Positions 17,809 through 47,044 of a stretch of 48,361 nucleotides of DNA are shown piece after piece. The first letter of the stretch is position 1; every line of letters starts with the position of its first letter. Source of the stretch: an uncultured Clostridia bacterium (GTDB taxonomy: Bacteria > Bacillota > Clostridia > Christensenellales > Maliibacteriaceae); the NCBI GenBank assembly GCA_934613185.1, contig CAKTSO010000001.1, positions 1-48,361 on the forward strand. Reading direction: 5' to 3'. The notes under the pieces are model-generated. The model was not told where the DNA came from and did no database searches. It worked only from the letters and a program-made list of their open reading frames with translations. The translations under genes were made by a program, and so were the position numbers.

Positions 17809-17816
17809 TCGCAGTT

Positions 17817-29185: not shown

Positions 29186-31123
29186 TCAGTTTTGCAGCAG
29201 ATAGTTGCGCGGATCGTACGCCGTGCCGCCAATGCGCACCTCAAAGTGCAGGTGGCTGCCGGTGGAGCGCCCCGTGCTGCCGACCAGCGCAATGACCTCG
29301 CCCTGGCTGACGGTCTGCCCGGCGGAGACCAGAAGCTGCGAACAGTGGCCGTAGCGCGTCATTTCCCCGTTGCCGTGGCTGATGTCGACGCAGTAGCCGT
29401 AGGAGCCGTTCCAGCCGGAGGCCGTCACCGTGCCGCTCTTGGCCGCGCGGATGGGCGTACCGGTGGGCGCGCCGATGTCGATGCCCGCGTGCAGGCGGCC
29501 CCAGCGATAGCCGAAGTTCGACGTGACGGTGCCGTTGGTGGGCGTCATGAAGCCGGAGGACGACACGCCCTGCACGATGATGCCGTAGCGCTTCGTGCCC
29601 TGCGCAACGACCTGGTTCGTCGCCGCTCGGATGACGTTCTCGCTCAGGACGGTGCGCTCGACCTCGGTCGAGCCGATGTAGCGGACCTCGACGGTCACTT
29701 CCTTTTCGCCGTTGACGCCCGCCTGGACGACGCGGCTCTGGCCGACGTAGAGCGAAGCGTCGGTGGTATATTCGGTGGCGAAGGCGATGCCCTCGTTGTA
29801 GGTCAGGATCTGCTTGCTGCCGACGTCGATGACGCTGTTTTGCGGAATGAGATTGAGCGTCATGCCCGCGGAAAGATCCTCGTTTGAGGAGACGCCGTCG
29901 TTGTCGGCGACAAGATCCGCCGCGGTGACGTTCTTCGCCAGGGCGATGCTGTCGAGCGTGTCGCCCTCGCGGACGGTGTAGGTATCGTTCTCGTCGACGC
30001 CCGTTTGCAGGAAGTTGAGCGCCTCGGTCTTGTTCTTCAAGAGCGAGCAGGACACGTCGCTTTGGCGGATCTCGACTTCCTGAACGAAGCCGATGTCCGT
30101 GGCGTTGTCGGCGTAGGGGGCCTTCAACTGTTCCAGAACCCAGTTGGCGTCCTCCTCGGTCGCGAAGGCGACGGCGGCCATGCCGTCGACATAGATGACG
30201 GAGGCGCTGACCTGCGCGTCGAGATTGCGGCGGATCTGCGCGCTGACATCCTCAACGCTGGAAAGATAGCGGCGGTCGACGCGCGTCTGCCGCACCTCCA
30301 GAAGCTGATCGTCCAGCACGGTCACGCCGTACTGCGCGGACAGGTCCTTGTAAATATCGTCGATGGCGGCCTGAACGTTGTCCTTGTCGGCGACCGTCCC
30401 GACGGCGATGCCGTTGACGTAGACCTCGCTTGCGTCGACGTAACGCGACGCGGGATCGAATCCGCCGAAGATCCAGAAGCCGATGACCGCGACGACTGCC
30501 GCGCCCACGGCGGACGCGACGGCGACGAGGCGGCGCGTATTCACGCGCGCATGGGTCTTCACATGGTTTTTCACCTGCGTCCGCACGGCGGAGGCGATCT
30601 TCTCGCCCAGCGCCGCGGTGCGCCCCGCGCGCTTGTTTTTGGCGCGTTTGGGCTGCGCCAGAGGCGCGACGCCGTCGATCTCTGGGATCAGATGCGTGTT
30701 TTCGTCGATGTCGCCGATGCCGAGCATGTCGTTCATGACGCGAAGATTCGACGGAATGACGTCGATGCTCTTTTCGGCCAGCGCGAGCGCCGAACGCACC
30801 GACGCAAACTGCGCGTGGCCGCCGTCGCGTGCGGGGGCGGAGACGTCCACGGGCGCAAGCTGACGGCGCATGCGGTCGGTATCCTCGAACGGATCGCGCG
30901 CGCGGGGACGGAAGGAATCGTCCATGCCCATATCAAAGCCGTCCAGGCTGTGCAGATCTTCAAACGCGGCGCTGTAATCGGTATAGCCGAAGGCGCTCAA
31001 GCTGCTTTGGGGGCGCCGCGGCTCGGCGTAGGGATAATCGCGGTTGACGGAGTAAAAACCGAACCCGCCGGAAGTTTCATAGGGCTGCGTCCGTTTGGCG
31101 GGATCGTTTGTTTTCGCCTGCAT
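29186..31123 (-). CDS. LysM-G5-M23 peptidoglycan DD-metalloendopeptidase family protein (paralog 1)
   Basis: 645 aa: cytoplasmic N-terminal region, one TM (LVAVASAVGAAVVAVIGFWIF), LysM (YTVREGDTLDSIA...LSAGMTLNL), G5-like (VVQAGVNGEKEVTVEVRY) and M23 (HAGIDIGAP...GSTGRSTGSHLHFEV). Confidence 0.9.
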   Translation of the reverse strand: MQAKTNDPAKRTQPYETSGGFGFYSVNRDYPYAEPRRPQSSLSAFGYTDYSAAFEDLHSLDGFDMGMDDSFRPRARDPFEDTDRMRRQLAPVDVSAPARDGGHAQFASVRSALALAEKSIDVIPSNLRVMNDMLGIGDIDENTHLIPEIDGVAPLAQPKRAKNKRAGRTAALGEKIASAVRTQVKNHVKTHARVNTRRLVAVASAVGAAVVAVIGFWIFGGFDPASRYVDASEVYVNGIAVGTVADKDNVQAAIDDIYKDLSAQYGVTVLDDQLLEVRQTRVDRRYLSSVEDVSAQIRRNLDAQVSASVIYVDGMAAVAFATEEDANWVLEQLKAPYADNATDIGFVQEVEIRQSDVSCSLLKNKTEALNFLQTGVDENDTYTVREGDTLDSIALAKNVTAADLVADNDGVSSNEDLSAGMTLNLIPQNSVIDVGSKQILTYNEGIAFATEYTTDASLYVGQSRVVQAGVNGEKEVTVEVRYIGSTEVERTVLSENVIRAATNQVVAQGTKRYGIIVQGVSSSGFMTPTNGTVTSNFGYRWGRLHAGIDIGAPTGTPIRAAKSGTVTASGWNGSYGYCVDISHGNGEMTRYGHCSQLLVSAGQTVSQGEVIALVGSTGRSTGSHLHFEVRIGGTAYDPRNYLLQN

Positions 31124-33433: not shown

Positions 33434-33484
33434 TCGCAAGACCTCCGTGAAACGGCGCTTTTTCTCCAAAAGACGCCCGGTTCT

Positions 33485-33635: not shown

Positions 33636-35117
33636 ATGCCGCTTTGCAGATTTCCCGGCGGCGGCGCGATGTTCTGCGCCACACCCGTCGAAAACATGTT
33701 TCTGGAAGAGTACATGCCCAACGCCCCGTCGGACTACGTCAAGGTCTATCTTTACGGCCTGATGCACTGCTATTATCCCAACGGCGGCGCGGCCGACCTT
33801 TCCTCCTTCGCCCGCAGCCTCCGCATCCCGGAGGACGACGTGCGCCGCGCGTTTTTCTATTGGCAGCAGCAGGGGCTGGTGCGCATTCAGGTCTCCCCGC
33901 AGGGGCCGAGCGTGTTCTACAACATCCTGCCGCGCGACGCGCGGGGCTTCGCGCTGCCCGCGGCCGACCGCTTTTTGAACTTCAACCGAAAGGTGCAGTC
34001 GCTCTTTGATCCCCGCCAGCTCACGCCGCGCGAGACGGACGCCATGCACGAATGGATCGAGGCGGACGGCTTTGAGGAAGACAGCATTTTGCAGCTTTGC
34101 GAATACGCCATCTCGCTGCACGGGCGAAACGTCGGCTTTGCGTATTTGAAGACCGTCGCGCAGAACTGGCTCGCCGAAGGCCTGACGAGCGCGGCGGACG
34201 TGCGCGCGCATTTGCAGCAGCGAAAATCCGAGGTGCGCGACGCGCAGTCGGTCCTGGCGTCGCTCGGGATCCGCAACCGCGCCGCCACGGAGGCGGAGCT
34301 TGCGCTGTATCGCAAATGGACGCTCGAATGGGGCTTTGACCGCGACGCGATCGACGTCGCGTGCGCGCAGTCGGCCTCCGCGGCGCAGCCGACGATGAAA
34401 TACGTCGACACGATCCTGTCTTCCTTCGCGGAAAACCACGTCTTCACCGCGCCCGAGATCGAGGCGTTTTTGCAATATCGCGCGCATCGCCGCGCGGCGG
34501 CGGCTTCCATTCAGAACGCCATGGGCGTCTACGGCGCGCCGAGCCCGACGCTGATGAACTGCCTTGACACCTGGCGCGCGCAGTACGGATACGACACGCC
34601 CGTGGTGCTTCTTGCCGCGCAGCAGGCCGGCCGCCGCGGACAAAAGACGCTCGACGCGCTGGAGAACATTCTGTCCTCCTGGCACGCGGCCAATCTTCTG
34701 TCCCAACAGGACGTGGTCGATTACCTTGCCGCGCAGAAGACCGACGGCGAGGCAGCGGCGAACGTGCTGCGGCATCTGGCGCTGGAATTCGCGCCGAACG
34801 AACAGACGCGCCGAAGCGTCTCGCTTTGGAGCACACAGTGGGGGCTGCCGATGGACGTGATCCTCTACGGCGCGGACGAGATCGTAAAGTCCGGCGTGCA
34901 GCGCGACCGCATGCGCGCGCTGCATAACCTCCTTCAAAATTGGTTCGAGCGAGGCGTCCGCGACCTCGCCGCCGCACAGGCCGCACAGGCCGCCCCGGCG
35001 GAACGAAGCTTCACGCCCTATTCCGCCGCGCGCGGGCAGCAGTCAGGCAGCAACAATTCTGCGCTGTCCTACGAGCAGCGCACCGACTCGATGAACGATG
35101 CCTATCTCGATCTTTGA
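33636..35117 (+). CDS. DnaD/DnaB_2-domain replication initiation and membrane attachment protein
   Basis: 493 aa. N-terminal FLEEYMPNAPSDYVKVYLYGL, plus repeated DnaD-type modules (RETDAMHEWIEADGFEEDSILQLCEYA...YLKTVAQNWLAEGL and YVDTILSSFAENHV). Lies upstream of a DnaI-like loader. The start could instead be M12 at 33669. Confidence 0.75.
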   Translation: MPLCRFPGGGAMFCATPVENMFLEEYMPNAPSDYVKVYLYGLMHCYYPNGGAADLSSFARSLRIPEDDVRRAFFYWQQQGLVRIQVSPQGPSVFYNILPRDARGFALPAADRFLNFNRKVQSLFDPRQLTPRETDAMHEWIEADGFEEDSILQLCEYAISLHGRNVGFAYLKTVAQNWLAEGLTSAADVRAHLQQRKSEVRDAQSVLASLGIRNRAATEAELALYRKWTLEWGFDRDAIDVACAQSASAAQPTMKYVDTILSSFAENHVFTAPEIEAFLQYRAHRRAAAASIQNAMGVYGAPSPTLMNCLDTWRAQYGYDTPVVLLAAQQAGRRGQKTLDALENILSSWHAANLLSQQDVVDYLAAQKTDGEAAANVLRHLALEFAPNEQTRRSVSLWSTQWGLPMDVILYGADEIVKSGVQRDRMRALHNLLQNWFERGVRDLAAAQAAQAAPAERSFTPYSAARGQQSGSNNSALSYEQRTDSMNDAYLDL

Positions 35118-35157
35118 TCGGGTTTGGAGCTTTTCACGCCTCCCAAAGGAGCAAGCC

Positions 35158-36168
35158 ATGTCACAGTATTATCAGCGCGCGCTGCGCCAGATGGATCTTG
35201 ACCGCAGCGACAAGATCGCCCGCGCCGAGGAAAACCGCCGCGCGTTTTACGCCGCGCACCCGGAGCTGGACGATCTGGAAAGCCAAATCGCCGCCGTCAC
35301 GCGCGAGGCGTTCCGAAGCCTTCGGGGGACGCACCCCGTCTCGGGCGAGGAGGCGGCCGCCGCCGCGCAGAAAAAAATCGACGTCCTTCGCCGCGAACAT
35401 GAGGCGCGCGTGCGCGCCGCGGGCGGCGACCCGAACGATTTTCTTCCCCGATGGGACTGCCCCGTGTGCCGCGACATGGGCTACATCGACACACCCGACG
35501 GCAACCGCCGCATGTGCGATTGTCTGAAGGCGAAGGCCGCCTCGATGGCGATCACGCACGAAGAGTTCCGCCCCGACCAAAATCAGAACTTCGACGCCTT
35601 CGACCTTTCCCGCTTCCCCGAAACGCCCGACCCCGTCCCGGGGGAGCGCAATTCGCAGCGAAAGCTCATGGCTCTCGCCTGTCAGATCGCGCGCGAATAC
35701 GCGGGGGCGTTTTCCGAAAAAGGCAGCGGCAACTTCCTTTTGTGCGGCGCGAGCGGCCTCGGGAAGACATATCTTCTCCAGTGCGTCGCGAATGCCGTGG
35801 CCGAGCGCGGCTATTCGGTCTGCTATCTTACGGCCTATCGGCTGTCGAACCTTCTGCGCGACGCGTATCTGGGGGAAGACGAGGCCGCACACACGGAGCA
35901 GGCGCTGATCAACTGCGATCTTCTTTGCATCGACGACCTTGGCAGCGAACCCATCCGCCGCAACATCAATCTGGAGAGCCTTTTTTCGATCTTAAACGAG
36001 CGCACGATCGCACATCGCGCCACGGCCGTGGCGAGCAATCTTTTATTAACCCAGCTTCGCGACCGCTACGGCGAACGGATCACGTCCCGTCTGGCGGGCG
36101 AAAACTGCCGCACGATCCGCCTCTACGGCGCGGACCTTCGTCTTGCAAAAAACACGCGCGAACCGTAA
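35158..36168 (+). CDS. DnaI/DnaC-like replicative helicase loader (AAA+)
   Basis: ORF trimmed to ATG 35158 with an AAAGGAG RBS. Zn motif CPVCRDMGYI...RMCDC, Walker A GASGLGKTYL, Walker B LLCIDDLGSE. Confidence 0.85.
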   Translation: MSQYYQRALRQMDLDRSDKIARAEENRRAFYAAHPELDDLESQIAAVTREAFRSLRGTHPVSGEEAAAAAQKKIDVLRREHEARVRAAGGDPNDFLPRWDCPVCRDMGYIDTPDGNRRMCDCLKAKAASMAITHEEFRPDQNQNFDAFDLSRFPETPDPVPGERNSQRKLMALACQIAREYAGAFSEKGSGNFLLCGASGLGKTYLLQCVANAVAERGYSVCYLTAYRLSNLLRDAYLGEDEAAHTEQALINCDLLCIDDLGSEPIRRNINLESLFSILNERTIAHRATAVASNLLLTQLRDRYGERITSRLAGENCRTIRLYGADLRLAKNTREP

Positions 36169-36265: not shown

Positions 36266-37219
36266 ATGAACGAAAATCTTCCCAATGCGGTGCTGTGCGT
36301 CGGGATGCTCAACTGCGACGTCTTTTTCCGCAACACACCGAAAAACCTCATGCACACCGACACGTCCTTCATGCGCGACGTGACGATGCTCGTCGGCGGC
36401 GACGCGGCGAACGTCTCGCAGAACCTCGCGCACATGGGCATCACCTCCTATCTTGCCGCGAACGTCGCGGGCGACGTGTTCGGGCAGCATGTCTGCGACA
36501 CGCTCGAGGGCGAAGGCGTGGACACCCGCTTCGTGCGCCGCGACAGCGAGACCGGCACGGCCGTGAGCCTGTTTTTCTATGACACGGACGGCAAAAAGCA
36601 CTGCGGCGCGTTCCGCGGCGGCAACCGTTCGTTCCGTCCCGACATGGTGACCGACGAGATGTTGAAATCCGCGCGGCACATGCACATCGGTTCGTTCGTG
36701 ACGCTCGAAAGCTTTATCGGGCAGCCCGCCGAAAATCTGATCCGCCGCGCAAAGGCGCTCGGGCTGACCGTCTCCGCCGACATCTCCGGCGGCAGCGCGG
36801 CCGACCGCGACACGATGCGCCGCGTCATCCCGCTTTGCGACGTGTTCACGATGAACGAAGAGGAGACGCTCGAATTGACGAACGAAACCGACATGAAGCG
36901 CGCCTCGGAAAAGCTTCGCGAATTCGCACCCACGCTTTTGATTTTGAAGCAGGGCGCACGCGGCGTCTTCGTCACGGATTTCAAGGGCTATGAAAAGCAG
37001 TTCGCGCCCCTCGCGCGGCCCGAAGAGGTCAAAGACGCCGTCGGCGCGGGCGATTCTTTCATTTCCGGCTACATCGCCGCGCTCCTTCACGGGGAAAGCC
37101 GCGACGAGTGCATCAAGACCGGCTCCGCCGCGTCCGCGATCTGCATTTCGGATTTCGGCGCGTCCAACTGGAAGGTCTCCTATGAACAAGTCCGCGCCTT
37201 TGCTGCGGAGCGCGCCTGA
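36266..37219 (+). CDS. PfkB-family kinase paralog K1 (most divergent; canonical NxxE)
   Basis: 317 aa. Motifs GGDAANVS (GG motif), VFTMNEEE (NxxE) and DAVGAGDSFISG (GAGD catalytic motif). Confidence 0.85.
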   Translation: MNENLPNAVLCVGMLNCDVFFRNTPKNLMHTDTSFMRDVTMLVGGDAANVSQNLAHMGITSYLAANVAGDVFGQHVCDTLEGEGVDTRFVRRDSETGTAVSLFFYDTDGKKHCGAFRGGNRSFRPDMVTDEMLKSARHMHIGSFVTLESFIGQPAENLIRRAKALGLTVSADISGGSAADRDTMRRVIPLCDVFTMNEEETLELTNETDMKRASEKLREFAPTLLILKQGARGVFVTDFKGYEKQFAPLARPEEVKDAVGAGDSFISGYIAALLHGESRDECIKTGSAASAICISDFGASNWKVSYEQVRAFAAERA

Positions 37220-37238
37220 GACGCGGGAGGTAGTGACA

Positions 37239-38204
37239 ATGCAGAAACGTTTTGACATTCTTTGCATGGGCATCGGCTGCTACGACGTCGTCGTGCGCCA
37301 TCTGCCCGCGGATTTCATGGAACAAAGCGTCGTCCCCATCGGCGATATCACCACTTCCACCGGCGGCGACGCGCTGAACGCCTCCGTCGATCTGACGCGT
37401 CTTGGCGCGAAAACCGGCTTTTTGACCGTTCTCGGGAACGATGCCTGGGGCAAGAGCGTCCTGGCCGATCTCGCGCAAAAGGGCGTGGATACCTCCGCCG
37501 TTCAGGTGCGCGACGACTTCAGCACCTGCGTCAGCTACGTTCTCGTCGAGAAAAACGGCGACCGTCATTTTGCCGTCAACTTCCCCGAGAACCCTCTTCC
37601 TCTTCACAACAGCGACATCTCCGACGAGCTTCTTGCCTCCACGCGGCACATTCATGCGGCAAGCTGCAATGCGCTGGGGTCGATGGACGACGAGCTGGAC
37701 GTCCTGTTCCGCCGCGCGCACGAGATGGGCGTGACCACGAGCATGGATACCGGCGCGGACCCCACGGGCCGCTGGTTCGACCGCATTCGAGAGACGATCA
37801 AATACTGCGACATCTTCTTCCCGAGCCACTACGAGGCGGCGGCCTACTGCGGCGGCGAAACGGATGTTTTGAAGATGAAGGAATTCTTCCGCGACAAGGG
37901 CGTGAAGATCTTCGGCGTGAAGCTGGGCGCGGACGGCGTGTTCGTCACCGACTTTAAAGAGGACATCTTCATGAAGCCGCTGTTCACCGGCACGCCCGTG
38001 GACACCACCGGCGCGGGCGACGCGTTCTGCTCGACGTTCGTGGCGGGCATCGTGCGCGGCATGAGCATGCACGACGCGGCGGCGCTGGGGCAGGCGCAGT
38101 CGGCGCACATCATCCGCACCGTCGGCGCGAACAACGGCGCGGTCGACATCCATACCCTCGTGGAATACGCAAAGGGCTACGGATACGATCTGGATATCAA
38201 ATAA
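37239..38204 (+). CDS. PfkB-family kinase paralog K2
   Basis: ORF 36990..38204 trimmed to ATG 37239 (GGGAGG RBS). Motifs TGGDALNAS, VTTSMD, FFPSHYE and DTTGAGDAFCST. Confidence 0.85.
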   Translation: MQKRFDILCMGIGCYDVVVRHLPADFMEQSVVPIGDITTSTGGDALNASVDLTRLGAKTGFLTVLGNDAWGKSVLADLAQKGVDTSAVQVRDDFSTCVSYVLVEKNGDRHFAVNFPENPLPLHNSDISDELLASTRHIHAASCNALGSMDDELDVLFRRAHEMGVTTSMDTGADPTGRWFDRIRETIKYCDIFFPSHYEAAAYCGGETDVLKMKEFFRDKGVKIFGVKLGADGVFVTDFKEDIFMKPLFTGTPVDTTGAGDAFCSTFVAGIVRGMSMHDAAALGQAQSAHIIRTVGANNGAVDIHTLVEYAKGYGYDLDIK

Positions 38205-38222
38205 TCGTTGTATTTCAACATC

Positions 38223-38262
38223 ATCCGCACGGGAAAATCGCTTTCCGTGCGGATTTTTCTTT
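38223..38262 (+). terminator. Intrinsic terminator after K2
   Basis: 10-bp stem atccgcacgg (38223-38232) / ccgtgcggat (38245-38254), then TTTTCTTTG. Confidence 0.75.
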
Positions 38263-38275
38263 GTGTTTTCTGGTT

Positions 38276-38554
38276 AGCTGCTTTCAAATAAGAAAACAAT
38301 CGTCAAAAAATATGGCATAACATGTGAAATCCTTTAAACCCACACATGCAATTTCTAAAACAAAAGTACATTTTTATAGATTCACATCATCAAAATGCCT
38401 TATTTTTTGATGCTTGCAGTTTTAAGCTAGAGATTTTTTGTTTTTGGCTAAGTGAAAAGCGGAGGCGACGCCGGAAGCGTCGTTGAGCATTTTCACAACG
38501 CCAAAACGGAAAAGATCAGCTTAAAACCGATTGTTTTCTTTTTTGAAGGCAGCT
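38276..38554. repeat. AT-rich 279-bp element bounded by 27-nt inverted repeats, with an internal ~109-nt long hairpin (MITE-like or structured RNA)
   Basis: The left arm agctgctttcaaataagaaaacaatcg (38276-38302) matches the reverse complement of 38528-38554 at 25 of 27 positions. An inner imperfect hairpin spans 38419-38527, with a gttttaagct/agcttaaaac base, a gtgaaaa/ttttcac helix and a cgacgc/gcgtcg tip. An additional hairpin catcaaaa/ttttgatg lies at 38387-38411. Confidence 0.6.
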
Positions 38555-38584
38555 TTAGTCATTTCTTTTTTTGACTGTTTCATA

Positions 38585-38590
38585 TATAAT
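38585..38590 (+). promoter_or_regulatory. Candidate -10 box of the L,D-transpeptidase gene
   Basis: TATAAT lies within tatataataga, the same extended context as the K3 promoter. No convincing -35 at 17-nt spacing. Confidence 0.35.
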
Positions 38591-38634
38591 AGACACGCGA
38601 TTTGCGATCTATCGGTTAAAGGAGCAATCATTCG

Positions 38635-39651
38635 ATGCAATCCGTCAAGCGGCGGCCCGTATGGGCCCTGATGGCAATCTTACTTGCGGCGGCGGCCGTG
38701 TTTTCCGGCTGCGCGAAGCGCGGCGTGGACGCGTCCGTCCCCTCGCCCGAACCTTCGTATGCGCAAAGCGAAATCGAAAATGCGCTGAGCGGCAGCGTGC
38801 AGGAAGCGCTGGCGCTGTTTGAAAAACAGCAGGAGGGCGCGGACGGCGCGGCACAGAACTTCCCGAAGACTTCCGTTTCCGCCGCGGCGCCCGAGGCGGA
38901 GCAATCGCCCGAGCCGACGCCCACGCCGACGATCCCGCAGGTGTCGTCCCAGATGCCGTACATGATCGCCATCTACATCGGCTCTCAGCGCGTCGTGGTC
39001 TATCAAAAGGACGCGGACGGCGCCTACACCGTCCCCGCGCGCGTGTTCACCGTCTCCACCGGTCTTGGCAGCAACACCATTTTGGGCCAGTATAAAATTC
39101 AGAGCCGCTGGCGCTGGCTTCCCATGCACGGGATCTACTGCCAGTACGTCACGCAGTGGAGCGGCAACTATCTGTTCCACTCCGTCATGTATTCCCAGAC
39201 CGACCCGTCGACGATGGATCGAAGCGCCTACAACCGCTTGGGCAGCAAGGCCTCCGCGGGCTGCATCCGCATGACCGTACGCGACGCCAAATGGATCTAC
39301 GACAACTGCGGCCGCGGCACCTATGTCATCGCGACGAACGATTCCTGCCCGCCCGGCACGCCCGGAAGCAGCGGCGTCCCGCCGCTGACGCTCGACGTGC
39401 GCTGGGATCCGACCGATCCCGACCCGCGCAATCCCTACATCACGGGGCTGCCCACGCCGACACCCGCGCCCGAACCGACGCCCGCGCCCGAACCGACGCC
39501 CGTCCCGAGCCCGAGCGAAGAACCGACGCCCGTCCCGAGCGAAACGCCGAGCCCGACGCCGACGCCCGCCCCGAGCGAAGCGCCCACACCCACTCCCGTG
39601 CCGACGCCGACGCCCGCGCCGCCCGAGCCTTCGCCCGGCGCGGAAAACTGA
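38635..39651 (+). CDS. L,D-transpeptidase (YkuD domain) lipoprotein with a Pro/Thr/Glu-rich C-terminal tail
   Basis: 338 aa. Lipobox FSGC. YkuD core is IAIYIGSQRVVVYQKD...LFHSV...GSKASAGCIRMTVRDAKWIY (catalytic His and Cys). Tail is PTPAPEPTPAPEPTPVPSPSEEPTPVPSETPSPTPTPAP. Confidence 0.85.
   Translation: MQSVKRRPVWALMAILLAAAAVFSGCAKRGVDASVPSPEPSYAQSEIENALSGSVQEALALFEKQQEGADGAAQNFPKTSVSAAAPEAEQSPEPTPTPTIPQVSSQMPYMIAIYIGSQRVVVYQKDADGAYTVPARVFTVSTGLGSNTILGQYKIQSRWRWLPMHGIYCQYVTQWSGNYLFHSVMYSQTDPSTMDRSAYNRLGSKASAGCIRMTVRDAKWIYDNCGRGTYVIATNDSCPPGTPGSSGVPPLTLDVRWDPTDPDPRNPYITGLPTPTPAPEPTPAPEPTPVPSPSEEPTPVPSETPSPTPTPAPSEAPTPTPVPTPTPAPPEPSPGAEN
39451..39640 (+). repeat. Coding short tandem repeats (Pro/Thr/Glu linker)
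   Basis: The 18-mer cccgcgcccgaaccgacg is tandem at 39463-39480 and 39481-39498. The 21-mer gaaccgacgcccgtcccgagc occurs at 39490-39510 and 39520-39540. Confidence 0.75.
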
Positions 39652-39663
39652 ACAGACGCTTTT

Positions 39664-39699
39664 CGGCGAACCGGATTTCCCCCCGGTTCGCCGTTTTTA
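39664..39699 (+). terminator. Intrinsic terminator after the L,D-transpeptidase gene
   Basis: 11-bp stem cggcgaaccgg (39664-39674) / ccggttcgccg (39683-39693), then TTTTT. Confidence 0.75.
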
Positions 39700-39711
39700 T
39701 ATCGATTTCAT

Positions 39712-39740
39712 TTCAAAACCGCGCGGTTTCGTTATATAAT
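39712..39740 (+). promoter_or_regulatory. Sigma-A-type promoter of K3
   Basis: TTCAAA (39712-39717), 17 nt, TATAAT (39735-39740). Confidence 0.55.
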
Positions 39741-39766
39741 AGAAGCTGAAAGTGAGTGCGGCTATC

Positions 39767-40717
39767 ATGAAAGTATTGTGTATCGGCGCGATTCTCTGCG
39801 ACGTGGCGTTCAGCCCCGTGGCGGAGAACGACTGGAAAAAGACGCGCCCCGTCACGGCGGAGGCATTCTCCCTGCACGGCGGCGGCGAAGGCAACAACGC
39901 TTCGATGGATCTTGCGGCCCTCGGCGAAGAGGTGCGGCTCGTCGGCCGCGTCGGCGACGATTTCATCGGGGCGCATCTTCTGGACGAACTGAACAAAAAG
40001 GGTGTGGATACCGAACACGTCATTCGCGTGCCGGGGGAAAACACGACCGTCTCCGTGCAGATGATCAGCTCCCGCGGCGCGCGGACGCTTGCGGCAAAGC
40101 GCTGGGGCGCGAACGAGACGCTCGAAGCGGGCGACGTGCCCGACGAATTGATCAAATGGGCGGATCACGTCCACATCGTCGCGGCGATGTGTTTGTCCGG
40201 CTTCGACGGCGCGGGCAGCGCCCGCGTGTTCGCCCGTGCGCACGCGCTCGGCAAGACGACGAGCATGGATCTGAACAATCCGCGCTTTGACGGCGAGTGC
40301 TTCCATCTGTTCCGCGACGCGCTCAAAAACTGCGACGTGTTTTTGCCGTCGAGCTACGAAGTCGAGCGCGCGGTGGGGCTAAGCGACATGCACGACATCC
40401 GCGACTTTTTCGCGCCCTACGGCATAAAAATTCTGGGCGTCAAGCGCTCGGAAAAGGGCGTGTATCTGACGGATTTCAAAAAAGAGATCGACATGCCGTC
40501 CCTTCTTTCGGGCGACCCGGTCGACGTCGTCGGCGCGGGCGACGCGTTTTCCTCGACGTTTGTCTCCGCCTGGAAGCGCGGCTATTCGATGCAAAACTGC
40601 GGCGCGATCGCAAGCGCCGCCTCGGCGCATGTGTTAAAAGCCCTCGGCGCGACGGCGGGCATGCGCGATTTCGACACGCTCGTTTCCTTTGCGAGGGAAA
40701 AGGGCGCGATGGAGTAA
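39767..40717 (+). CDS. PfkB-family kinase paralog K3
   Basis: The ORF-track start 39752 is a GTG; the first ATG is 39767 (MKVLCIGAILCD). Motifs GGGEGNNAS (variant GG motif), KTTSMD, FLPSSYE and DVVGAGDAFSST. Confidence 0.85.
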   Translation: MKVLCIGAILCDVAFSPVAENDWKKTRPVTAEAFSLHGGGEGNNASMDLAALGEEVRLVGRVGDDFIGAHLLDELNKKGVDTEHVIRVPGENTTVSVQMISSRGARTLAAKRWGANETLEAGDVPDELIKWADHVHIVAAMCLSGFDGAGSARVFARAHALGKTTSMDLNNPRFDGECFHLFRDALKNCDVFLPSSYEVERAVGLSDMHDIRDFFAPYGIKILGVKRSEKGVYLTDFKKEIDMPSLLSGDPVDVVGAGDAFSSTFVSAWKRGYSMQNCGAIASAASAHVLKALGATAGMRDFDTLVSFAREKGAME

Positions 40718-40795
40718 GAAGAAATCTTGCGGGAAGCATCCCTTTCAGAAAAAGGGCTGCAAGCCGCGGTCAATTACATTGCTTGAGAGAACGGC

Positions 40796-41135
40796 GCAGT
40801 TAAGGGCTTCCTCTGAGAGGGGCTTGTACCCCTAGGGCACGAGACACCCCGAGCGTCCCCGAAGGGGACAGTACCCCTAGGGCACGCGATTCAGGCGTGA
40901 AGCCGGCGCCAAAGGCGACTGATGAGGTGTCGCTGTTGGGGCAGATGCAATAAGAAGAACGACAGTTTCGATCTTCGCCGCAGCAAATGCAGCGCTGATT
41001 TCCAACCGTCAACCTTCTTATTGAACCTGCGCTCCGTATTCGAAGCAGAGACACCTCATCCGTCTTGCCTTACGGCAATCCACCTTCCCCTCTTAGGGGA
41101 AGGCTTGCGGGAAGCGTCGCAGAGAAGAAATGCGG
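40796..41135. repeat. Cluster of REP-like hairpins and nested inverted repeats in the K3-K4 spacer
   Basis: Elements seen:
- The 22-mer ggcttcctctgagaggggcttg (40805-40826) equals 15273-15294.
- The direct repeat gtacccctagggcacg (40827-40842 and 40871-40886) flanks the hairpin gtccccgaaggggac.
- Nested stems gatgaggtgtc (40921-40931) / gacacctcatc (41050-41060) and caataagaag (40948-40957) / cttcttattg (41014-41023).
- The hairpin ccttcccct-ctta-ggggaagg (41082-41102).
- cttgcgggaagc occurs at both 40726 and 41104. Confidence 0.55.
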
Positions 41136-41245
41136 GGTCCTCGACATCCGAAGCCCCACAAGCTCCCGCCGTCATTTCTACACTCCCCGATCTTACGGCG
41201 CATTTGCGCTCAAACGATAGAAACAAACCCACACGGAGGACATCC

Positions 41246-42196
41246 ATGAACTTTTTGGTCATCGGCCCGATCGTCTGCGACATTGCGATGAAAAACATCG
41301 ATCCCGAGGATTTCAAACGCGGACGCACCGTTTTGGAAAGCTTTGAGATCGCGGGCGGCGGCGACGCCAACAATGCCGCGATCGATCTTGCCGCCCTCGG
41401 CGAAAACGCCCGCATCTGCGCGCGCGTCGGCGCGGACTTCCTGGGCGACCGTCTCGTTTCGCTTTTAGAGGCGCGCGGCGTGGACGTGCGGTATTTGAAG
41501 CGGATCGAGGATCGCCCGACCACCACGTCCGTCCTCATGCTCGGCTCCTCGGGCGACGTGACGCTCAACGTCATGCGCCACGGCGCGAACGAATCGATGG
41601 AGCCCGGTGACGTGACGGAGGACATGATCGCTTGGGCAGATCACGTTCACATGGTCAGCGTTTTGAATCTGCACGGCTTCGACGGCGAAGGCACGGCGCG
41701 CGCGTTCGCGCTTGCCAAAAAGCACGGCAAGACGACGAGCATGGATCTGAAAAAGCGCATTGCCGACGTTCCCGACCGCATGGGACTGATCGAAAAGACG
41801 CTCGAAAACTGCGACGTGTTTTTGCCCAGCCATTACGAGGTCGAATATCTGTGCGGTCTGACCGATCCGCAGGAGGCGGCGCGGTATTTTCGGCGCTTCG
41901 GCTTAAAGGTCTTCGGCTGCAAGCTCGGCGCGCAGGGCGCGTATCTGACGGATTATAAAGACGAAGTCTTTCAGCCGTCGCTGTATCGGGGGACGCCCGT
42001 GGACGTCATCGGCGCGGGCGACGCGTTCTCCTCGACATTCTCGTGCGCATGGAAGCGCGGATATTCCCTGAAAGACGCCGCGGCGATCGCGAGCGCCGCC
42101 TCGGCGCAGATCGTCGGCACGGTCGGCGCGACGGCCGGCATGAAGGATTTTGATACGCTCGTTTCCTTTGCGCGCGCTTGCGGCGCGCTCGATTGA
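41246..42196 (+). CDS. PfkB-family kinase paralog K4
   Basis: ORF 40922..42196 trimmed to ATG 41246 (CGGAGGA RBS). Motifs GGGDANNAA, KTTSMD, FLPSHYE and DVIGAGDAFSST. Confidence 0.85.
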   Translation: MNFLVIGPIVCDIAMKNIDPEDFKRGRTVLESFEIAGGGDANNAAIDLAALGENARICARVGADFLGDRLVSLLEARGVDVRYLKRIEDRPTTTSVLMLGSSGDVTLNVMRHGANESMEPGDVTEDMIAWADHVHMVSVLNLHGFDGEGTARAFALAKKHGKTTSMDLKKRIADVPDRMGLIEKTLENCDVFLPSHYEVEYLCGLTDPQEAARYFRRFGLKVFGCKLGAQGAYLTDYKDEVFQPSLYRGTPVDVIGAGDAFSSTFSCAWKRGYSLKDAAAIASAASAQIVGTVGATAGMKDFDTLVSFARACGALD

Positions 42197-42216
42197 CTTT
42201 TTTCGGAGGTTTTGCG

Positions 42217-43173
42217 ATGAAAATGCTCTGTCTGGGCGCGGTGTTGTGCGACATCGCGGCGAAGCCCGTCCCCGCGGACGCGTTTGCGGCGCGCCGCATC
42301 CAGCTTGACAGTTTGAATCTGGCGGGCGGCGGCGACGCCAACAACGCGTCGATCGACCTTGCGCGCCTCGGAGAGGACGTGCGGATCGTCAGCCGCGTCG
42401 GCGGCGACTTTTTGGGGCAGATGCTCACGACCCTTCTTTCGCAAAACGGCGTGGACACGCGCTATGTCGCGCGGGACGAACACGCCGAGACGACCGCCGC
42501 GATTCTGATGCTCGGCCCCGACGGGGTCACGACGATCAGCGCGCGGCACAGCGGCGCGTGCGACAGCGTCCGCGAAAGCGACGTCACGGACGAGGCGCTC
42601 ATCTGGGCCGACCATCTTCACGTCGTCAACGTCATGAACATGCCGTGTCTGGACGGCGAGGGACTCGGTCGCCTCTTTGCCCGCGCGCACGAAGCGGGCG
42701 TGACCACGAGCATGGACTTGAAGCGTCCGCGCACCCCGCTGGAAAAGCCGCTGGAGGCCGTCGTCCCCGCGCTTTCGCACTGCGACGTGTTCCTGCCCAG
42801 CGACTACGAGGTCGAATACCTGTGCGGATTCACCGATCCGCATCGCGCACGCGACTTCTTCCGCGATTTCGGCGTGAAGGTCTTCGGCATGAAGTGCGGA
42901 AAAGCGGGCGTGTATCTGACGGACTTTCAAGAGGAGGTCTTTCAAAAATCGCTGTTTTCCGGCACGCCCGTGGACGTCACCGGCGCGGGCGACGCGTTTT
43001 CCTCGACGTTTGCGGCGTCGTGGCGGCGCGGGCTGTCCCTGCGCGACGCGGCGCTGATCGCAAGCGCCGCCTCGGCGCGCGTGCTTTCCGCGGTCGGGAC
43101 GACGGCGGGCATGGTCGATTTCGACACGCTTTGCGCCGACGTCCGCGCCGCGGGCGAGACGCTGTCGGTCTGA
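42217..43173 (+). CDS. PfkB-family kinase paralog K5
   Basis: ORF trimmed to ATG 42217 (CGGAGG RBS), 20 nt after the K4 stop. Motifs GGGDANNAS, VTTSMD, FLPSDYE and DVTGAGDAFSST. Confidence 0.85.
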   Translation: MKMLCLGAVLCDIAAKPVPADAFAARRIQLDSLNLAGGGDANNASIDLARLGEDVRIVSRVGGDFLGQMLTTLLSQNGVDTRYVARDEHAETTAAILMLGPDGVTTISARHSGACDSVRESDVTDEALIWADHLHVVNVMNMPCLDGEGLGRLFARAHEAGVTTSMDLKRPRTPLEKPLEAVVPALSHCDVFLPSDYEVEYLCGFTDPHRARDFFRDFGVKVFGMKCGKAGVYLTDFQEEVFQKSLFSGTPVDVTGAGDAFSSTFAASWRRGLSLRDAALIASAASARVLSAVGTTAGMVDFDTLCADVRAAGETLSV

Positions 43174-43247
43174 CAAACGCTCAACACGGCGGAAACGCCG
43201 TTTGAAATTTTAAAAAATTCTCAACATCATTCACGGAGGTATTTCCC

Positions 43248-44213
43248 ATGACCAAATTCCTTTGCGTCGGACAGGCGCTGTGCGACCTGTATCTTCACCC
43301 GGCAGGCCCCGAGATTTTCGACGGCAGACAGAACCACGTTCTGGACTCGATCCCCGTCATGGGCGGCGGCGACGCAAACAACGGCTCCATCGACCTTGCA
43401 AAGATCGGCAACGAAGTCGCCATCGCGACCAGCCTGGGAAGAGACATCTTCGGCTCTCAGGTGCTGCGCCTTCAGCAGGAGGCGGGCGTGGACACGCGCT
43501 TCGTCACGCTCCGCGACGACATGCCCACGGCGGTCCATGCGATCCTGCTTTCCAGCGAAGCCACGCGCGGCAACGCGGCTCTGCCCGGCACTGCGCAGGC
43601 GCTTCGCCGCGAAGACATCCCCGACGAAGCGATCGCCTGGGCGGATCACGTCCATATCGTAAGCGTTTTAAGCCACCCGCTACTCGACGGCGAGGGCGTG
43701 GCGTCCGTCGCGCGCGAGGCCAAGCGCCTGGGCAAGACGACGAGCATGGATCTGCAGTATGACGAGCGTTTGTGGAAGCCCGAGGAGACGCTTTCCAAAA
43801 TCGAGGCGGCGCTTCCCTACATCGACGTCTTCCTTCCCAGCTTCGACGAGGCGACCGTCGTCACCGGCGGGCTGACCGATCCGCTTGCAATGAAGGAGTT
43901 CTTCCGCAAGTACGACCTCAAAATCTTCGGCTGCAAGCTCGGCGCAAAGGGCGTGTATCTGACGGATTTCGATCAGGACGTCTTCCTTCCCCCGCTGTAT
44001 CGCGGCGAGCCCGTGGACACCCTGGGCTGCGGCGACGCGTTCTGCTCCGGCTTCATCTCCGCCTACAAGCGCGGATTCTCCCTCGAGGGCTGCGGCCTCA
44101 TCGGCAGCGCCGCCTCCGCGAAGATCTGCGCCGTCGTCGGCTGCAACGCCGGCATGCGTCCGTTCGACGAACTGGTCGCGCATGCCCGCGATTTCGGCTA
44201 CGACGCCAAATAA
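43248..44213 (+). CDS. PfkB-family kinase paralog K6 (GCGD variant)
   Basis: 321 aa with a CGGAGG RBS. Motifs GGGDANNGS, KTTSMD, FLPSFDE and DTLGCGDAFCSG. Confidence 0.85.
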   Translation: MTKFLCVGQALCDLYLHPAGPEIFDGRQNHVLDSIPVMGGGDANNGSIDLAKIGNEVAIATSLGRDIFGSQVLRLQQEAGVDTRFVTLRDDMPTAVHAILLSSEATRGNAALPGTAQALRREDIPDEAIAWADHVHIVSVLSHPLLDGEGVASVAREAKRLGKTTSMDLQYDERLWKPEETLSKIEAALPYIDVFLPSFDEATVVTGGLTDPLAMKEFFRKYDLKIFGCKLGAKGVYLTDFDQDVFLPPLYRGEPVDTLGCGDAFCSGFISAYKRGFSLEGCGLIGSAASAKICAVVGCNAGMRPFDELVAHARDFGYDAK

Positions 44214-44218
44214 TCGGT

Positions 44219-45229
44219 ATGAAAAAGGATTTTGACGTCATCGCGCTGGGCGGCGCGGCGTTCGACATTCCCGTGTCGCCCGTGCCGCGCGATATTATGG
44301 CAATCGGCGGCGTGAACGCCGATATCCGCATGGCGACCGGCGGCGACGCGCTCAACGGCGCGATCTCTCTTTCGTCCCTCGGGATGCGCACCGCGCTTTT
44401 GACCTACACCGGAACGGACGAATTTTCCGACGCCATCGTCGAGAGATTAAAAGAAGCCGGGGTCGACACGTCCCTCGTCGTGCGCGACGAAAACTTCCGC
44501 ACGACCATGGCCTATCTCCTGATCGAAGAAAGCGGCGAGCGGCACATTCTGGGGCCGGGCTACGCGAACGTCAAATCCGGTCTCAATCGCACGCATGTGA
44601 CGGACGAGATCCTCAGCCGCACGCGGCATCTGCACTACGCGAGCGTCAACGCCAACAAGTTTCTGGACGGCGAAGACATCGGCGACGTGTTCCGCCGCGC
44701 AAAAGCGCTCGGCATCACGACGAGCATGGATGCGGGCTTCGACCGTGACGGGCTCTGGCTCGAAAAGGCCAAATACGCCCTGCCCTACTGCGATATTTTC
44801 TTCCCGAGCTATTCCGAGGCCGTCCCCATCGCGGGCGGCAGGACGGACGTGCGCGAGATGGCGGAGTTCTTCCGCCCGTACCATCTTCAATACTTTGGCT
44901 GCAAGCTCGGCGCGGACGGCGCGTATTTGTACGATTATGCAAACGAACGCGAATATCGTCAGCCGACGCTCCTGCGCGGCCCCGTCGTCGACACGACCGG
45001 CGCGGGCGACGCATTCTTCGCGGGCTTTTTGACGGCGTATCTGCACGGCTGGGACGTGGACGACTGTCTTCGTCTTGCCTCGGCGCAGTCGGCGATCATC
45101 ATTTCGTCCATCGGCGCGAACGTCGGCGTGCGCGATCTTTCCGCGGCGCTCGACGTCGCAAAGAAGGCGGGCGTGACGATCCGCGGCGCGCAGAAGGAGG
45201 GTCTTTATGGCGAAAGAGAAACGGTTTGA
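44219..45229 (+). CDS. PfkB-family kinase paralog K7
   Basis: ORF 43772..45229 trimmed to ATG 44219, 5 nt after the K6 stop. Motifs TGGDALNGA, ITTSMD, FFPSYSE and DTTGAGDAFFAG. Confidence 0.85.
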   Translation: MKKDFDVIALGGAAFDIPVSPVPRDIMAIGGVNADIRMATGGDALNGAISLSSLGMRTALLTYTGTDEFSDAIVERLKEAGVDTSLVVRDENFRTTMAYLLIEESGERHILGPGYANVKSGLNRTHVTDEILSRTRHLHYASVNANKFLDGEDIGDVFRRAKALGITTSMDAGFDRDGLWLEKAKYALPYCDIFFPSYSEAVPIAGGRTDVREMAEFFRPYHLQYFGCKLGADGAYLYDYANEREYRQPTLLRGPVVDTTGAGDAFFAGFLTAYLHGWDVDDCLRLASAQSAIIISSIGANVGVRDLSAALDVAKKAGVTIRGAQKEGLYGERETV

Positions 45230-46166
45230 CGTCATCGTTGCGGGCTACGCCGGATACGATCTCGCCGTCTCGCCCGTGCCGCAGAACATCATGGATGTGG
45301 ACACCGGCACCGCGCCGCAGCGGATCATCACCGTCGGCGGCGACGGGATCAACGCGGCGACGAGCTTTGCGTCTTTGGGATGCAAAACGGCGCTTTGTTC
45401 CGCCGTCGGCCGCGACATGTTCGCAAAAACCGTCCGCAATCATTTGAAAGACCATAACATCGACGCGCGATACGTCTTCGACGTCGACGCGCCGACAACG
45501 TTCACGCTGATCCTCGTCGGAGAGGACGGCGAACGGCACTGTCTCATCCGCCGCGGCGCGACGGAATCCATCTGCCGCGACATGGTCCCGGCCGAGGCAA
45601 TCGAAAACGCGCGGCATCTTCACTACGCGAGCTTTTTCCCGATGACGCGCCTTGACCCGGAGGCACATCTTCTGCTTCGGCAGGCAAAAGAAGCCGGGCT
45701 TTCCACAAGCATGGACGCGGTGACGTATCACGGCGACAAAGACCCGCTGGAGCTGCTCGCCCCGTCTCTGCCCTACGTCGACATCTTCATGCCGAGCTTC
45801 GACGACGCGGCGCTGATCTTCAAAACGCGCGACTTCGCCGAAATGAAGCGGCAGATGGCGCGGTTCGGGACGAAGTTTTTCTGTGTCAAATGCGGCGCGA
45901 ACGGACTTCTCGCCACGGATTTCGGGCGCGACGTTCACGTTCCCGCGATGTGCCGCGGCGCGGTTGTCGACACCACCGGCGCGGGCGATTCCTGCGCGGC
46001 GGGCTTTGCGGCGGCGTATCTTCGCGGCGGCGACCTTGCCGCCTGCGCGGCGATCGCAAGCGCAAACGCGGCGTTCGTCGTGCAATCCTTCGGCGCAACG
46101 ACCGGCTGCCGTCCGTATGAAGACGTGGCCGCGCTGGCAAAGAGCTTCGGCTATGACGTGCCGTAA
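45207..46166 (+). CDS. PfkB-family kinase paralog K8
   Basis: 319 aa with a GAAGGAGGG RBS; the start overlaps the K7 end by 23 nt. Motifs VGGDGINAA, LSTSMD, FMPSFDD and DTTGAGDSCAAG. Confidence 0.85.
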   Translation: MAKEKRFDVIVAGYAGYDLAVSPVPQNIMDVDTGTAPQRIITVGGDGINAATSFASLGCKTALCSAVGRDMFAKTVRNHLKDHNIDARYVFDVDAPTTFTLILVGEDGERHCLIRRGATESICRDMVPAEAIENARHLHYASFFPMTRLDPEAHLLLRQAKEAGLSTSMDAVTYHGDKDPLELLAPSLPYVDIFMPSFDDAALIFKTRDFAEMKRQMARFGTKFFCVKCGANGLLATDFGRDVHVPAMCRGAVVDTTGAGDSCAAGFAAAYLRGGDLAACAAIASANAAFVVQSFGATTGCRPYEDVAALAKSFGYDVP

Positions 46167-46172
46167 AAAAAT

Positions 46173-46210
46173 CAAAAAAGAGCAAGTCGTCAATGACTTG
46201 CTCTTTTTTA
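46173..46210. terminator. Bidirectional intrinsic terminator closing the kinase array
   Basis: 11-bp stem aagagcaagtc (46178-46188) / gacttgctctt (46195-46205), flanked by A-runs and T-runs. Confidence 0.75.
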
Positions 46211-46220
46211 ATAAAAAAAA

Positions 46221-46523
46221 TCACGCATACCAGTTGTAGTCCCATCGATTTTCCAGGCAGTACAGAACCCTGTGGCGCTTGAACAGGACGTCTTTTTCCA
46301 CAAGCTCTTTCAGTTCGGCCGCGGTAATGGGGCGCCAGTGCGTGACGCGTCCGAGTCTCGGATCATACCCGAGCGCCCATTCGCACCCTCTTGCGCCGTG
46401 CGGCAGATAGTCAAAATGCGCGATCCATTCCTTTCCGTTCGGCAGCACACGGCGCACGATGCAATACTGCCCGTTCTCCGGCCATTTGTCCTGCATTGAA
46501 TGCCACGGTTTCTTTGAGATCAT
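46221..46523 (-). CDS. DUF551-like small protein (phage-associated family)
   Basis: 100 aa with a GGGAGGA RBS. The pattern WPENGQYCIV...W...RVTHWRPI resembles DUF551 (THWMPLP-type C-terminus). Called from memory. Confidence 0.55.
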   Translation of the reverse strand: MISKKPWHSMQDKWPENGQYCIVRRVLPNGKEWIAHFDYLPHGARGCEWALGYDPRLGRVTHWRPITAAELKELVEKDVLFKRHRVLYCLENRWDYNWYA

Positions 46524-46609: not shown

Positions 46610-47044
46610 GTGCGCGCAAAACCTAAGCGCAAAACCGATCGTCGGGAGGCGCTGATTTTGAAAAAACTGATTCTTATCGTCGTCCTTGTCCTCGTCGCCG
46701 CGGCGTTTTTGCCCGTGCGCCCCGCGATGCGCGCGCCCGAGGTGACGCGCCTTTCCCTCGAGGCGGACGACAAAAAAAGCGCGTCGCTCGTGCGAATTTT
46801 AAACAGCGACGCCGCCGCGCTCAACGCCGTGTCCGTCTACTGTTACGGGCTTGCCGCCGACCGCCTCGCCGCGCGGCAGGGCGCAAACGAGCCGACGTGC
46901 GTGACGTTCTATTTCGACGGCCTGCGTTACGTCGGCGCGACGACGACCTTTCGGGGCGCGGGGGAGTACTTCGACTTATCCGGCCGCAGCGCCGAACAGC
47001 TCGACGGCCTGACGTTCGAGCAGTGGGCCGCACAGAGGGAGTGA
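46610..47044 (+). CDS. Hypothetical N-terminally anchored protein
   Basis: The ORF-track start 46610 is a GTG. An in-frame TTG at 46658 preceded by GGGAGG plus 7 nt would give MKKLILIVVLVLVAAAF... It has a single TM and no recognisable domain. Confidence 0.5.
   Translation: MRAKPKRKTDRREALILKKLILIVVLVLVAAAFLPVRPAMRAPEVTRLSLEADDKKSASLVRILNSDAAALNAVSVYCYGLAADRLAARQGANEPTCVTFYFDGLRYVGATTTFRGAGEYFDLSGRSAEQLDGLTFEQWAAQRE

Follow-up and report, generated by a model that had tools for sequence, protein, structure and literature searches.

A partner-less tandem array of YdjH-like PfkB kinases in an uncultured Clostridia bacterium, conserved across related lineages

The PfkB-family kinase YdjH of Escherichia coli, named 'L-glycero-L-galacto-octuluronate kinase' in RefSeq, is encoded as a single copy beside the aldolase YdjI, dehydrogenases, transporters, and the DeoR-type regulator YdjF. 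According to a later paper that cites the original study (PMC9602453), both YdjH and YdjI favor long-chain monosaccharides with a terminal carboxylate. Here, we analyzed a 48,361-nt stretch of DNA (the window) from an uncultured Clostridia bacterium (contig CAKTSO010000001.1), in which eight PfkB paralogs, named K1–K8 in 5′ to 3′ order, are encoded in tandem on the + strand. The nearest characterized relative of these kinases is E. coli YdjH, a ketose/sugar-acid kinase. On balance, we favor the reading that the array is a lineage-specific tandem battery of YdjH-like sugar kinases, each of them competent, individually kept, and diverged in substrate.

When a profile of K1–K8 was compared with the PDB, YdjH (3h49/3in1) scored 232 bits and the next match 134 bits. 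YdjH was likewise the top match of K1 alone (85.8 bits) and of K8 alone; in the phmmer search with K8, 3h49 scored 146.7 bits and the next structure 61.9. The identity of the eight proteins to YdjH is 24%–34%. Structure prediction covered K5 among the eight paralogs: the AlphaFold model (predicted local distance difference test score, pLDDT, 95.8) has the ribokinase fold, resembles many PfkB structures at template modeling (TM) scores of ∼0.8–0.94, and has 3in1_A (YdjH) as its top Foldseek match (TM 0.92/0.94, root-mean-square deviation 1.8 Å). The array kinases share with YdjH a GGD motif, with Asp where ribokinase RbsK has Lys43, as well as P[NS]xxE and GAGD; they differ from it in having TTSMD and an HxH motif and in PS replacing PN. 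The genetic setting differs too, in that the array lacks every one of the genes that accompany the single-copy ydjH.

Single-copy kinases of the same YdjH-like subfamily occur at loci designated here, like the other loci compared, by L numbers. Those of L094 and L099 are 37%–39% identical to K5, and L094_1 nests within the K clade of the tree and has the same TTSMD, PSDYE, HLH, and GAGD motifs. In contrast to the array, L094, L099, and L103 have one kinase per locus, flanked by catabolic partner genes. In both L094 and L099, these encode an ABC transporter, two class II aldolases, and a DeoR regulator, joined in L094 by a Zn-dependent alcohol dehydrogenase and an FGGY kinase, whereas the L099 contig ends at this point. 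The partners in L103 (Kineothrix alysoides) are a GntR regulator, a class II aldolase, a sugar ABC transporter, and an aldo-keto reductase. Of the four single-copy relatives considered, three thus belong to catabolic operons, and the fourth, L102, adjoins a sugar-catabolic cluster with GH31, MFS, isomerase-like, and ROK genes. Since three of these four lie in ordinary catabolic operons, the chemistry of the array is most likely ordinary sugar phosphorylation.

RbsK (1RKD) and the ribokinase/2-keto-3-deoxygluconate (KDG) kinase/fructokinase group have the same fold, and the array kinases retain equivalents of Asp16, Asn46, and the catalytic Asp255 of RbsK, along with its GG motif and, save for Asp in K8, the glutamate of NxxE. 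The latter nevertheless score 71–117 bits against the ribokinase model TIGR02152 (cutoff 299.65), and the sugar-contact residues Lys43 and Glu143 and the lid residues of RbsK are replaced in them. The sulfofructose kinase YihV (7ag6), a ketose-1-kinase that acts on an anionic sugar, is the second structural neighbor of the K5 model (TM 0.79–0.86), but it is only 22% identical, reaches 83.5 bits with the family profile, and is encoded in a sulfoglycolysis operon. None of the eight paralogs reached an NCBIfam equivalog cutoff. All matches to the models scored (ribokinase, TIGR02152/NF008353; IolC, TIGR04382; tagatose kinase, NF049991; FrlD, NF007321; and those for KDG kinases, fructokinase, and pseudouridine and nucleoside kinases) fell below cutoffs of 216–700, the best scores being 117 bits, for K1 to IolC_N and for K4 to ribokinase, where the cutoffs are ∼300.

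The layout of the locus is as follows.

33636..35117, + strand: dnaD-like replication initiation gene (PF07261, DnaB_2 domain, on the identical gene in L001/L002)
35098..36168, + strand: dnaI-like helicase loader (PF01695/PF00308, IstB/DnaA AAA, matches)
36266..37219, + strand: K1, outlier PfkB kinase (MNEEE, TVSAD; PF00294 E 5e-47)
37239..38204, + strand: K2, YdjH-like PfkB kinase, best-conserved member (PF00294 E 8.9e-49)
38223..38254, + strand: terminator-like hairpin 3′ of K2, 13-bp stem and T run
38635..39651, + strand: L,D-transpeptidase gene (YkuD; ldt) between K2 and K3 (PF03734 E 1.2e-12)
39767..40717, + strand: K3, YdjH-like kinase, GGGEGNN variant, with its own promoter-like box upstream
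40718..41245: K3–K4 spacer, 528 bp
41246..42196, + strand: K4, YdjH-like kinase, opens the K4–K8 block (PF00294 E 1.1e-43)
42217..43173, + strand: K5, YdjH-like kinase (PF00294 E 9.5e-41)
43248..44213, + strand: K6, YdjH-like kinase, GCGD variant
44219..45229, + strand: K7, YdjH-like kinase (31% identity to E. coli YdjH, E 1.7e-45)
45207..46166, + strand: K8, YdjH-like kinase (PSFDD), the paralog nearest E. coli YdjH (34% identity, E 2e-46)
46171..46212: bidirectional terminator-like hairpin, 18-bp stem, closes the array

A first-pass annotation of the window had described eight same-strand open reading frames (ORFs) with intact frames, and its coordinates agree exactly with the ORF listing, which gives eight intact + strand ORFs of 316–336 amino acids without internal stops. 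It had also placed dnaD and dnaI upstream, a strong terminator downstream, and a secreted L,D-transpeptidase as the other gene of the region; the PF07261 and IstB/DnaA AAA matches, the hairpin with the 18-bp stem, and the YkuD match between K2 and K3 bear this out. The ldt product has an N-terminal signal/lipobox-like sequence and a tail rich in Pro and Thr. Metagenome gene callers place the start of the dnaI-like gene at 35158. K4, which has GGAGG as its ribosome-binding site, and the genes after it are tightly packed, with gaps of 20, 74, and 5 bp followed by a 23-bp overlap of K7 and K8. The array could have been an artefact of assembly, as the first-pass annotation had cautioned. L001 is 100% identical to the region and has the same eight genes, and L002 (98.5%–99.5% identity) and L092 (96%–99%), each from other samples, also carry them. 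Since the same array recurs in independent metagenome assemblies, an assembly artefact is ruled out.

The assignment to the PfkB family held for all eight proteins, which PF00294 matches along almost all of their length (E 2.7e-38 to 8.9e-49; 132–167 bits for K1–K8 against a gathering cutoff of 25.8). In a multiple alignment, the GG motif, DxxG[AC]GD, and a conserved, sugar-binding N-terminal Asp (D12 equivalent) are present in 8/8. GAGD is found in K1–K5, K7, and K8; K6 has GCGD, that is, GCG instead of GAG in the anion hole, with the catalytic Asp kept. Of the signatures proposed at the outset, the GG and C-terminal motifs are therefore common to the whole array, but the central [TS]TSMD occurs in seven of the eight, K1 having TVSAD. 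The motif variants had been read correctly. At the NxxE site, which is the Mg/phosphate motif, K1 has NEEE (MNEEE), K2–K7 have SxxE, and K8 has SxxD, so K2–K8 conform to PSxx[ED]; the alignment likewise agrees on GCGD in K6 and GGGEGNN in K3. The Ser-for-Asn replacement in the NxxE motif is also found in the operon-embedded single-copy relative L094. Because of this, the Ser variant is unlikely to mean inactivity, and it is probably functional. The K3 GGGEGNN and K6 GCGD variants recur in orthologs from other genera (GCGD is common to the L006 and L009 orthologs, while the L090 K6 ortholog has GAGD); hence these oddities are mostly fixed features of the orthogroups and not signs of decay.

Active-site columns were located in an alignment of the orthogroups that included E. 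coli RbsK and YdjH. Equivalents of RbsK D16, G41/G42, N46, E190, and D255 are kept in K2–K8 and in the window K1, with Asp at the E190 equivalent in K8, and the catalytic motifs are intact in 8/8 window kinases. Two kinases of other arrays have degenerate motifs. L006_1 (L006:6809–7747), an ortholog of K1, has lost GG, NxxE, and GAGD (IGAGAGA/LDEAT/GVTE) in an open frame, and L008_5 (L008:7122–8054) reads AGGGAFT/CDEYV/GLED, its frame also intact. Judged by these motifs, L006_1 and L008_5 are likely pseudokinases.

Pairwise identity among K1–K8 is 29%–54%. K3, K4, and K5 are 50%–54% identical to one another, and K1 is ∼30% identical to all seven others. The N-terminal halves have a mean identity of ∼33% and the C-terminal halves of ∼40%; the first-pass annotation had the direction of this difference right but overstated it as a strong contrast. 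In the RbsK-based alignment, the columns of residues 14, 98, 100, 110, 112, and 143, taken as the sugar-contact/lid sites of RbsK (1RKD), vary from one orthogroup to another and are mostly invariant inside each. At the Lys43 column, Asp is found in K2, K4–K8, and YdjH and Glu in K3; the residue varies in the K1 group. As judged from the alignment, the divergence of pocket columns fits substrate diversification, the property that the first-pass annotation had ascribed to these paralogs.

Related genomes, in which a search for the same array had been proposed, contain syntenic arrays. At least four other genus-level lineages hold one-to-one orthologs in the same gene order downstream of dnaD-dnaI, with 6–8 copies. 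L006 has dnaD-dnaI followed by eight kinases and is without ldt; L090 is arranged as dnaD-dnaI-K-K-YkuD-K-K-K-K, with six kinases; L097 reads M23-dnaD-dnaI-K-K-YkuD-K-K up to the contig end; and L009 contains orthologs of K4 to K8, then MadL/MadM. The dnaD-like gene occupies the same upstream position in L006, L090, L092, and L097. DnaI identity among the window, L006, L090, and L097 lineages is 52%–58%, from which we take them to be roughly genus-level relatives. In a neighbor-joining tree with 200 bootstraps, each of K1–K8 forms an orthogroup of its own across the window, L006, L009, and L090, with 98%–100% support; L090, with its six genes, has no K7 or K8. As had been claimed, the paralogs are old: their divergence and the cross-genus orthogroups exclude a recent amplification. 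In the Christensenellales contig L008, an array of eight kinases is bordered by an NYN gene and, at its other end, by radC plus the gene of a YmfI-like elongation factor P (EF-P) modification reductase. L008_1–4 group together at 100% bootstrap and L008_6–7 at 99%. The L008 copies arose largely by separate duplications.

Close homologs of the array kinases are rare. Among 5.8 billion proteins, there are ∼36 clusters at least 37% identical to K5, and their named members are labeled 'Clostridia bacterium' or 'Christensenellales bacterium.' A GTDB scan with the K3–K6 alignment, which used generic patterns, gave no orthologs among the matches listed, only relatives at 24%–33% identity, and a metagenome scan with the K8 alignment gave one fragment among the matches listed. 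We used 80 loci from the GTDB scan as controls and rescanned them with all eight proteins. Among the matches listed, the distant relative (24%–33% identity) was single-copy within ±10 kb at 80/80 genome loci. Measured against these lone-copy control loci, the array exceeds chance expectation.

Every paralog is under purifying selection, as judged from sequence comparisons. The ratio of nonsynonymous to synonymous substitution rates (dN/dS) against another strain is 0–0.31 per kinase; against L006 it is 0.06–0.21 for K2–K8 (K2, 0.06) and 0.46 for K1, with dS saturated. Identity of K2–K6 across the compared lineages is 62%–83% (K2 orthologs, 73%–83%), while K7 and K8 share 70% and 64% identity with the corresponding L006 proteins, a comparison in which DnaI reaches 57% and DnaD 55%. 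In the lineages compared, K2–K8 are thus better conserved than DnaD (55%) and DnaI (52%–58%). K1 is the fastest-evolving member, with orthologs 33%–58% identical.

The first-pass annotation had noted a lack of pathway partners, and this extends to the lineages examined. No YdjI-type class II aldolase, dehydrogenase, transporter, or DeoR-type regulator was found within the array or adjacent to it in the window, L001, L006, L008, L090, or L097. The sole exception is L009, where MadL and MadM malonate-transporter equivalogs (L009:4923–6089) start 16 bp past the K8 ortholog on the same strand; no other transporter was seen directly adjoining an array. Neighboring dehydrogenase and 'xylose-isomerase-like' genes were considered as hidden partners and rejected on their NCBIfam matches, which identify the would-be partners as a glyoxylate reductase/phosphoglycerate dehydrogenase-like enzyme and endonuclease IV (Nfo), both encoded downstream, and as the EF-P modification reductase YmfI.

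Terminator-like hairpins follow K2 (38223–38254), ldt (39664–39693), and K8 (46171–46212). Upstream of K1, ldt, K3, K4, and K6, the only candidate for a shared operator was a TATATAATAGA box, present before both ldt and K3. Between dnaI (which ends at 36168) and K1 (which starts at 36266), we found no terminator-like site in the 97-bp gap, and the corresponding gap in L090 is 16 bp; K1–K2 may therefore be read from the dnaD-dnaI transcript. The terminators and promoter-like boxes appear to split the array into at least three to four transcription units, which would be dnaD-dnaI-K1-K2 (possibly), ldt, K3, and K4–K8. Although it lies within the array, ldt is probably a transcription unit of its own; it is found at the same place in L090, L092, and L097 but not in L006.

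Rfam gave nothing credible in the spacers at the gathering threshold or at E ≤ 1, and no riboswitch explains the 528-bp gap between K3 and K4. In strain L092, this spacer is 251 bp long and is without a ∼262-bp stretch at ∼40823–41083. The strain-specific insertion (40823–41083) carries GTACCCCTAGGGCACG twice and splits the hairpin GGGCTTCCCCTGAGAGGGGAAGGC, which L092 keeps whole; in sequence it looks like a small element of the repetitive extragenic palindrome/miniature inverted-repeat transposable element type. Similar GC-rich hairpins, GGCTTCCTCTGAGAGGGGCTTGCGG, occur at intergenic positions 15263–15294 and 40800–40823 and may represent a repeated extragenic palindrome that serves as an insertion target. 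Between the K2 terminator and ldt, a ∼289-bp low-GC stretch (38269–38558) is absent from L002 and L092; 50 bp of it are 94% similar to 13251–13300 on the opposite strand.

The favored reading, a battery of diverged sugar kinases, would have the following history and mechanism. The tree and the gene contexts suggest that the kinase of a ydj-like catabolic operon, comprising a regulator, class II aldolase, transporter, and oxidoreductase, was duplicated repeatedly in an ancestor of the uncultured gut Clostridia that make up a family-level clade. Each enzyme would act alone, as a typical PfkB homodimer. Since the copies are competent, individually kept, and diverged in the pocket, each probably phosphorylates a different sugar-like substrate; by analogy with YdjH, the substrates would most plausibly be ketoses, sugar acids, or higher-carbon sugars. 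The nucleosides and cell-envelope-derived compounds that the first-pass annotation had also proposed gained no specific support. Phosphorylation would trap the sugar in the cell, and the phospho-sugars would then be processed by enzymes encoded elsewhere in the genome. The variable copy number (six in L090) and the split transcription units point to independent members.

Several considerations count against such a battery. The kinases are more conserved than the replication proteins, which a core role fits better than optional sugar scavenging. The missing linked aldolase, transporter, and regulator would be odd for catabolic kinases and gives no account of what becomes of their products. Housekeeping genes flank the arrays: dnaD-dnaI in the window and, in L008, radC with the YmfI-like reductase. 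The pocket argument is drawn from a sequence alignment to the RbsK (1RKD) contact sites instead of a liganded structure of the array kinases. Finally, the degenerate members in two eight-gene arrays hint that not every member is an independent enzyme.

The degenerate but intact ORFs L006_1 and L008_5 would fit a picture in which the paralogs paired through the β-sheet lid, the PfkB dimer interface, into a hetero-oligomeric assembly with some non-catalytic subunits, in which specificity or regulation is set by the partner in mixed dimers or larger complexes. The tight packing of K4–K8, a gene order kept across genera, and the unusually strong conservation agree with this. There is a precedent in chloroplasts, where FLN1/FLN2 are PfkB-fold paralogs that act as complex subunits and not as free sugar kinases: PMC3409070 places Fructokinase-like proteins in the plastid RNA polymerase complex, and 'Fructokinase-like 1' chains (8xzv_E, 8w9z_I) are among the PDB matches of the family profile. 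These proteins are, however, eukaryotic, belong to that polymerase complex, and are remote (60 bits). Moreover, the active site is complete in 8/8 window genes, copy number is six in one lineage and eight in others, terminators part K1–K2, K3, and K4–K8, and the Christensenellales array reached eight through different duplications, so we regard a hetero-oligomer as unlikely. Equally unlikely is an integrated housekeeping-linked multi-kinase system that would be a core trait of the family-level clade. Its paralogs would either form lid-mediated mixed oligomers, occasionally with pseudokinase subunits, or act together on one endogenous metabolite class, in part expressed from the dnaD-dnaI transcript. 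Such a system would explain both the conservation above that of DnaD/DnaI and the lack of transporters and aldolases.

A housekeeping neighborhood and strong conservation would also be explained if the kinases salvaged nucleosides or cofactor precursors in a small-genome organism without de novo routes. In favor of this, K1–K2 may share a transcript with dnaD-dnaI, the region immediately downstream in L006 and L090 contains a PRK-family nucleoside/nucleotide kinase gene, and the PfkB family includes adenosine, inosine-guanosine, and pseudouridine kinases, which are among the PDB matches. Salvage is nonetheless improbable, given that the array kinases score 24–41 bits against the nucleoside kinase model NF041164 and at most 61 bits against the pseudouridine kinase model, where the cutoffs are 450–540, and that both the best structural match and the nearest single-copy relatives belong to sugar catabolism. 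Acarbose kinases (AcbK/Mak1) are PfkB kinases that are not known to act with downstream pathway partners and, as far as is known, occur as single genes. Enzymes that, like them, modify or detoxify sugar-like inhibitors or antibiotics by phosphorylation would need neither a transporter nor a downstream enzyme, and the partner genes are indeed missing in all lineages, as expected of such kinases. Mak1 (6wb4) is a PfkB protein with 68 bits to the family profile, far more distant than YdjH with 232; the array, in contrast to typical accessory resistance genes, belongs to the core genome, with synteny and strong conservation across genera; its nearest single-copy relatives are catabolic; and PADLOC defense-system models match none of K1–K8. 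A detoxifying role is accordingly very doubtful. Many co-oriented kinases without other enzymes might phosphorylate one polyhydroxylated scaffold, such as inositol or a higher-carbon sugar, in sequence, one hydroxyl per paralog. PfkB-family myo-inositol kinases exist in plants and Thermococcus, but we know of no bacterial precedent for sequential phosphorylation by such kinases. Lineages differ in copy number, the array is divided among separate transcription units, and the pocket positions differ too widely to suit re-binding of one scaffold, which makes this idea highly improbable. The tandem same-strand layout and the fast evolution of K1 could, at the far end of the range, reflect redundant dosage amplification or decaying duplicates without distinct roles. 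With paralogs just 29%–54% identical, an own cross-genus orthogroup for each, window reading frames and motifs all intact, and dN/dS well below 1 within species (0–0.31) and, for K2–K8, between genera (K1 at 0.46, with dS saturated), simple redundancy is contradicted and hardly credible.

Elsewhere, the window encodes a solute-binding protein, a phosphodiesterase, RecQ, a pseudouridine synthase, BrnQ, ABC and MATE exporters, a TetR regulator, and two LysM-G5-M23 peptidases. The peptidase paralogs (29186–31123 and 31385–33469, both − strand) are adjacent and divergent from dnaD. The pair is kept upstream of the array in L002, L006, L090, and L092, and one of the two is visible in L097, at the contig end. 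An 897-aa protein encoded at 18782–21475 (− strand) has an unusual combination of an N-terminal RNA polymerase alpha C-terminal domain and a match to sigma-70 region 4. Four ORF regions have gene-like codon bias without a detectable family: 11880–14090, 17338–18518, and 46221–46523 on the − strand and 46610–47044 on the + strand. Pfam gave no match for the 736-aa ORF at 11880–14090 or for the small ORFs 17338–17769, 17817–18518, and 46221–46523, and PADLOC gave none for the two small ORFs downstream of the array (46221–46523 and 46610–47044).

Full-text literature searches turned up no account of bacterial tandem PfkB arrays, in line with the first-pass annotation, which had suggested that the array may be undescribed. 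We conclude that the proteins add new members to a family already known, probably with ordinary chemistry, and that the conserved, partner-less array of 6–8 genes represents a new variation in how PfkB genes are organized. It would not be a new kind of system unless the integrated or the hetero-oligomeric reading is true. As a rule, a PfkB kinase travels with its pathway, and this is upheld elsewhere, with 80/80 distant relatives lone among the matches listed and three of four single-copy relatives in operons; the array, with its 6–8 tandem kinases in the core genome and no partners, departs from it. For finding out what YdjH-type kinases recognize, the locus offers a natural specificity panel of eight diverged, individually conserved YdjH-like kinases in one organism. 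If the kinases are simple sugar-trapping enzymes, the array would be a tidy case of tandem duplication and subfunctionalization; if instead they assemble or work in concert, the array would represent a new mode of organization for a very common enzyme family. The locus could also reveal which sugars are harvested by an abundant group of uncultured gut Clostridia.

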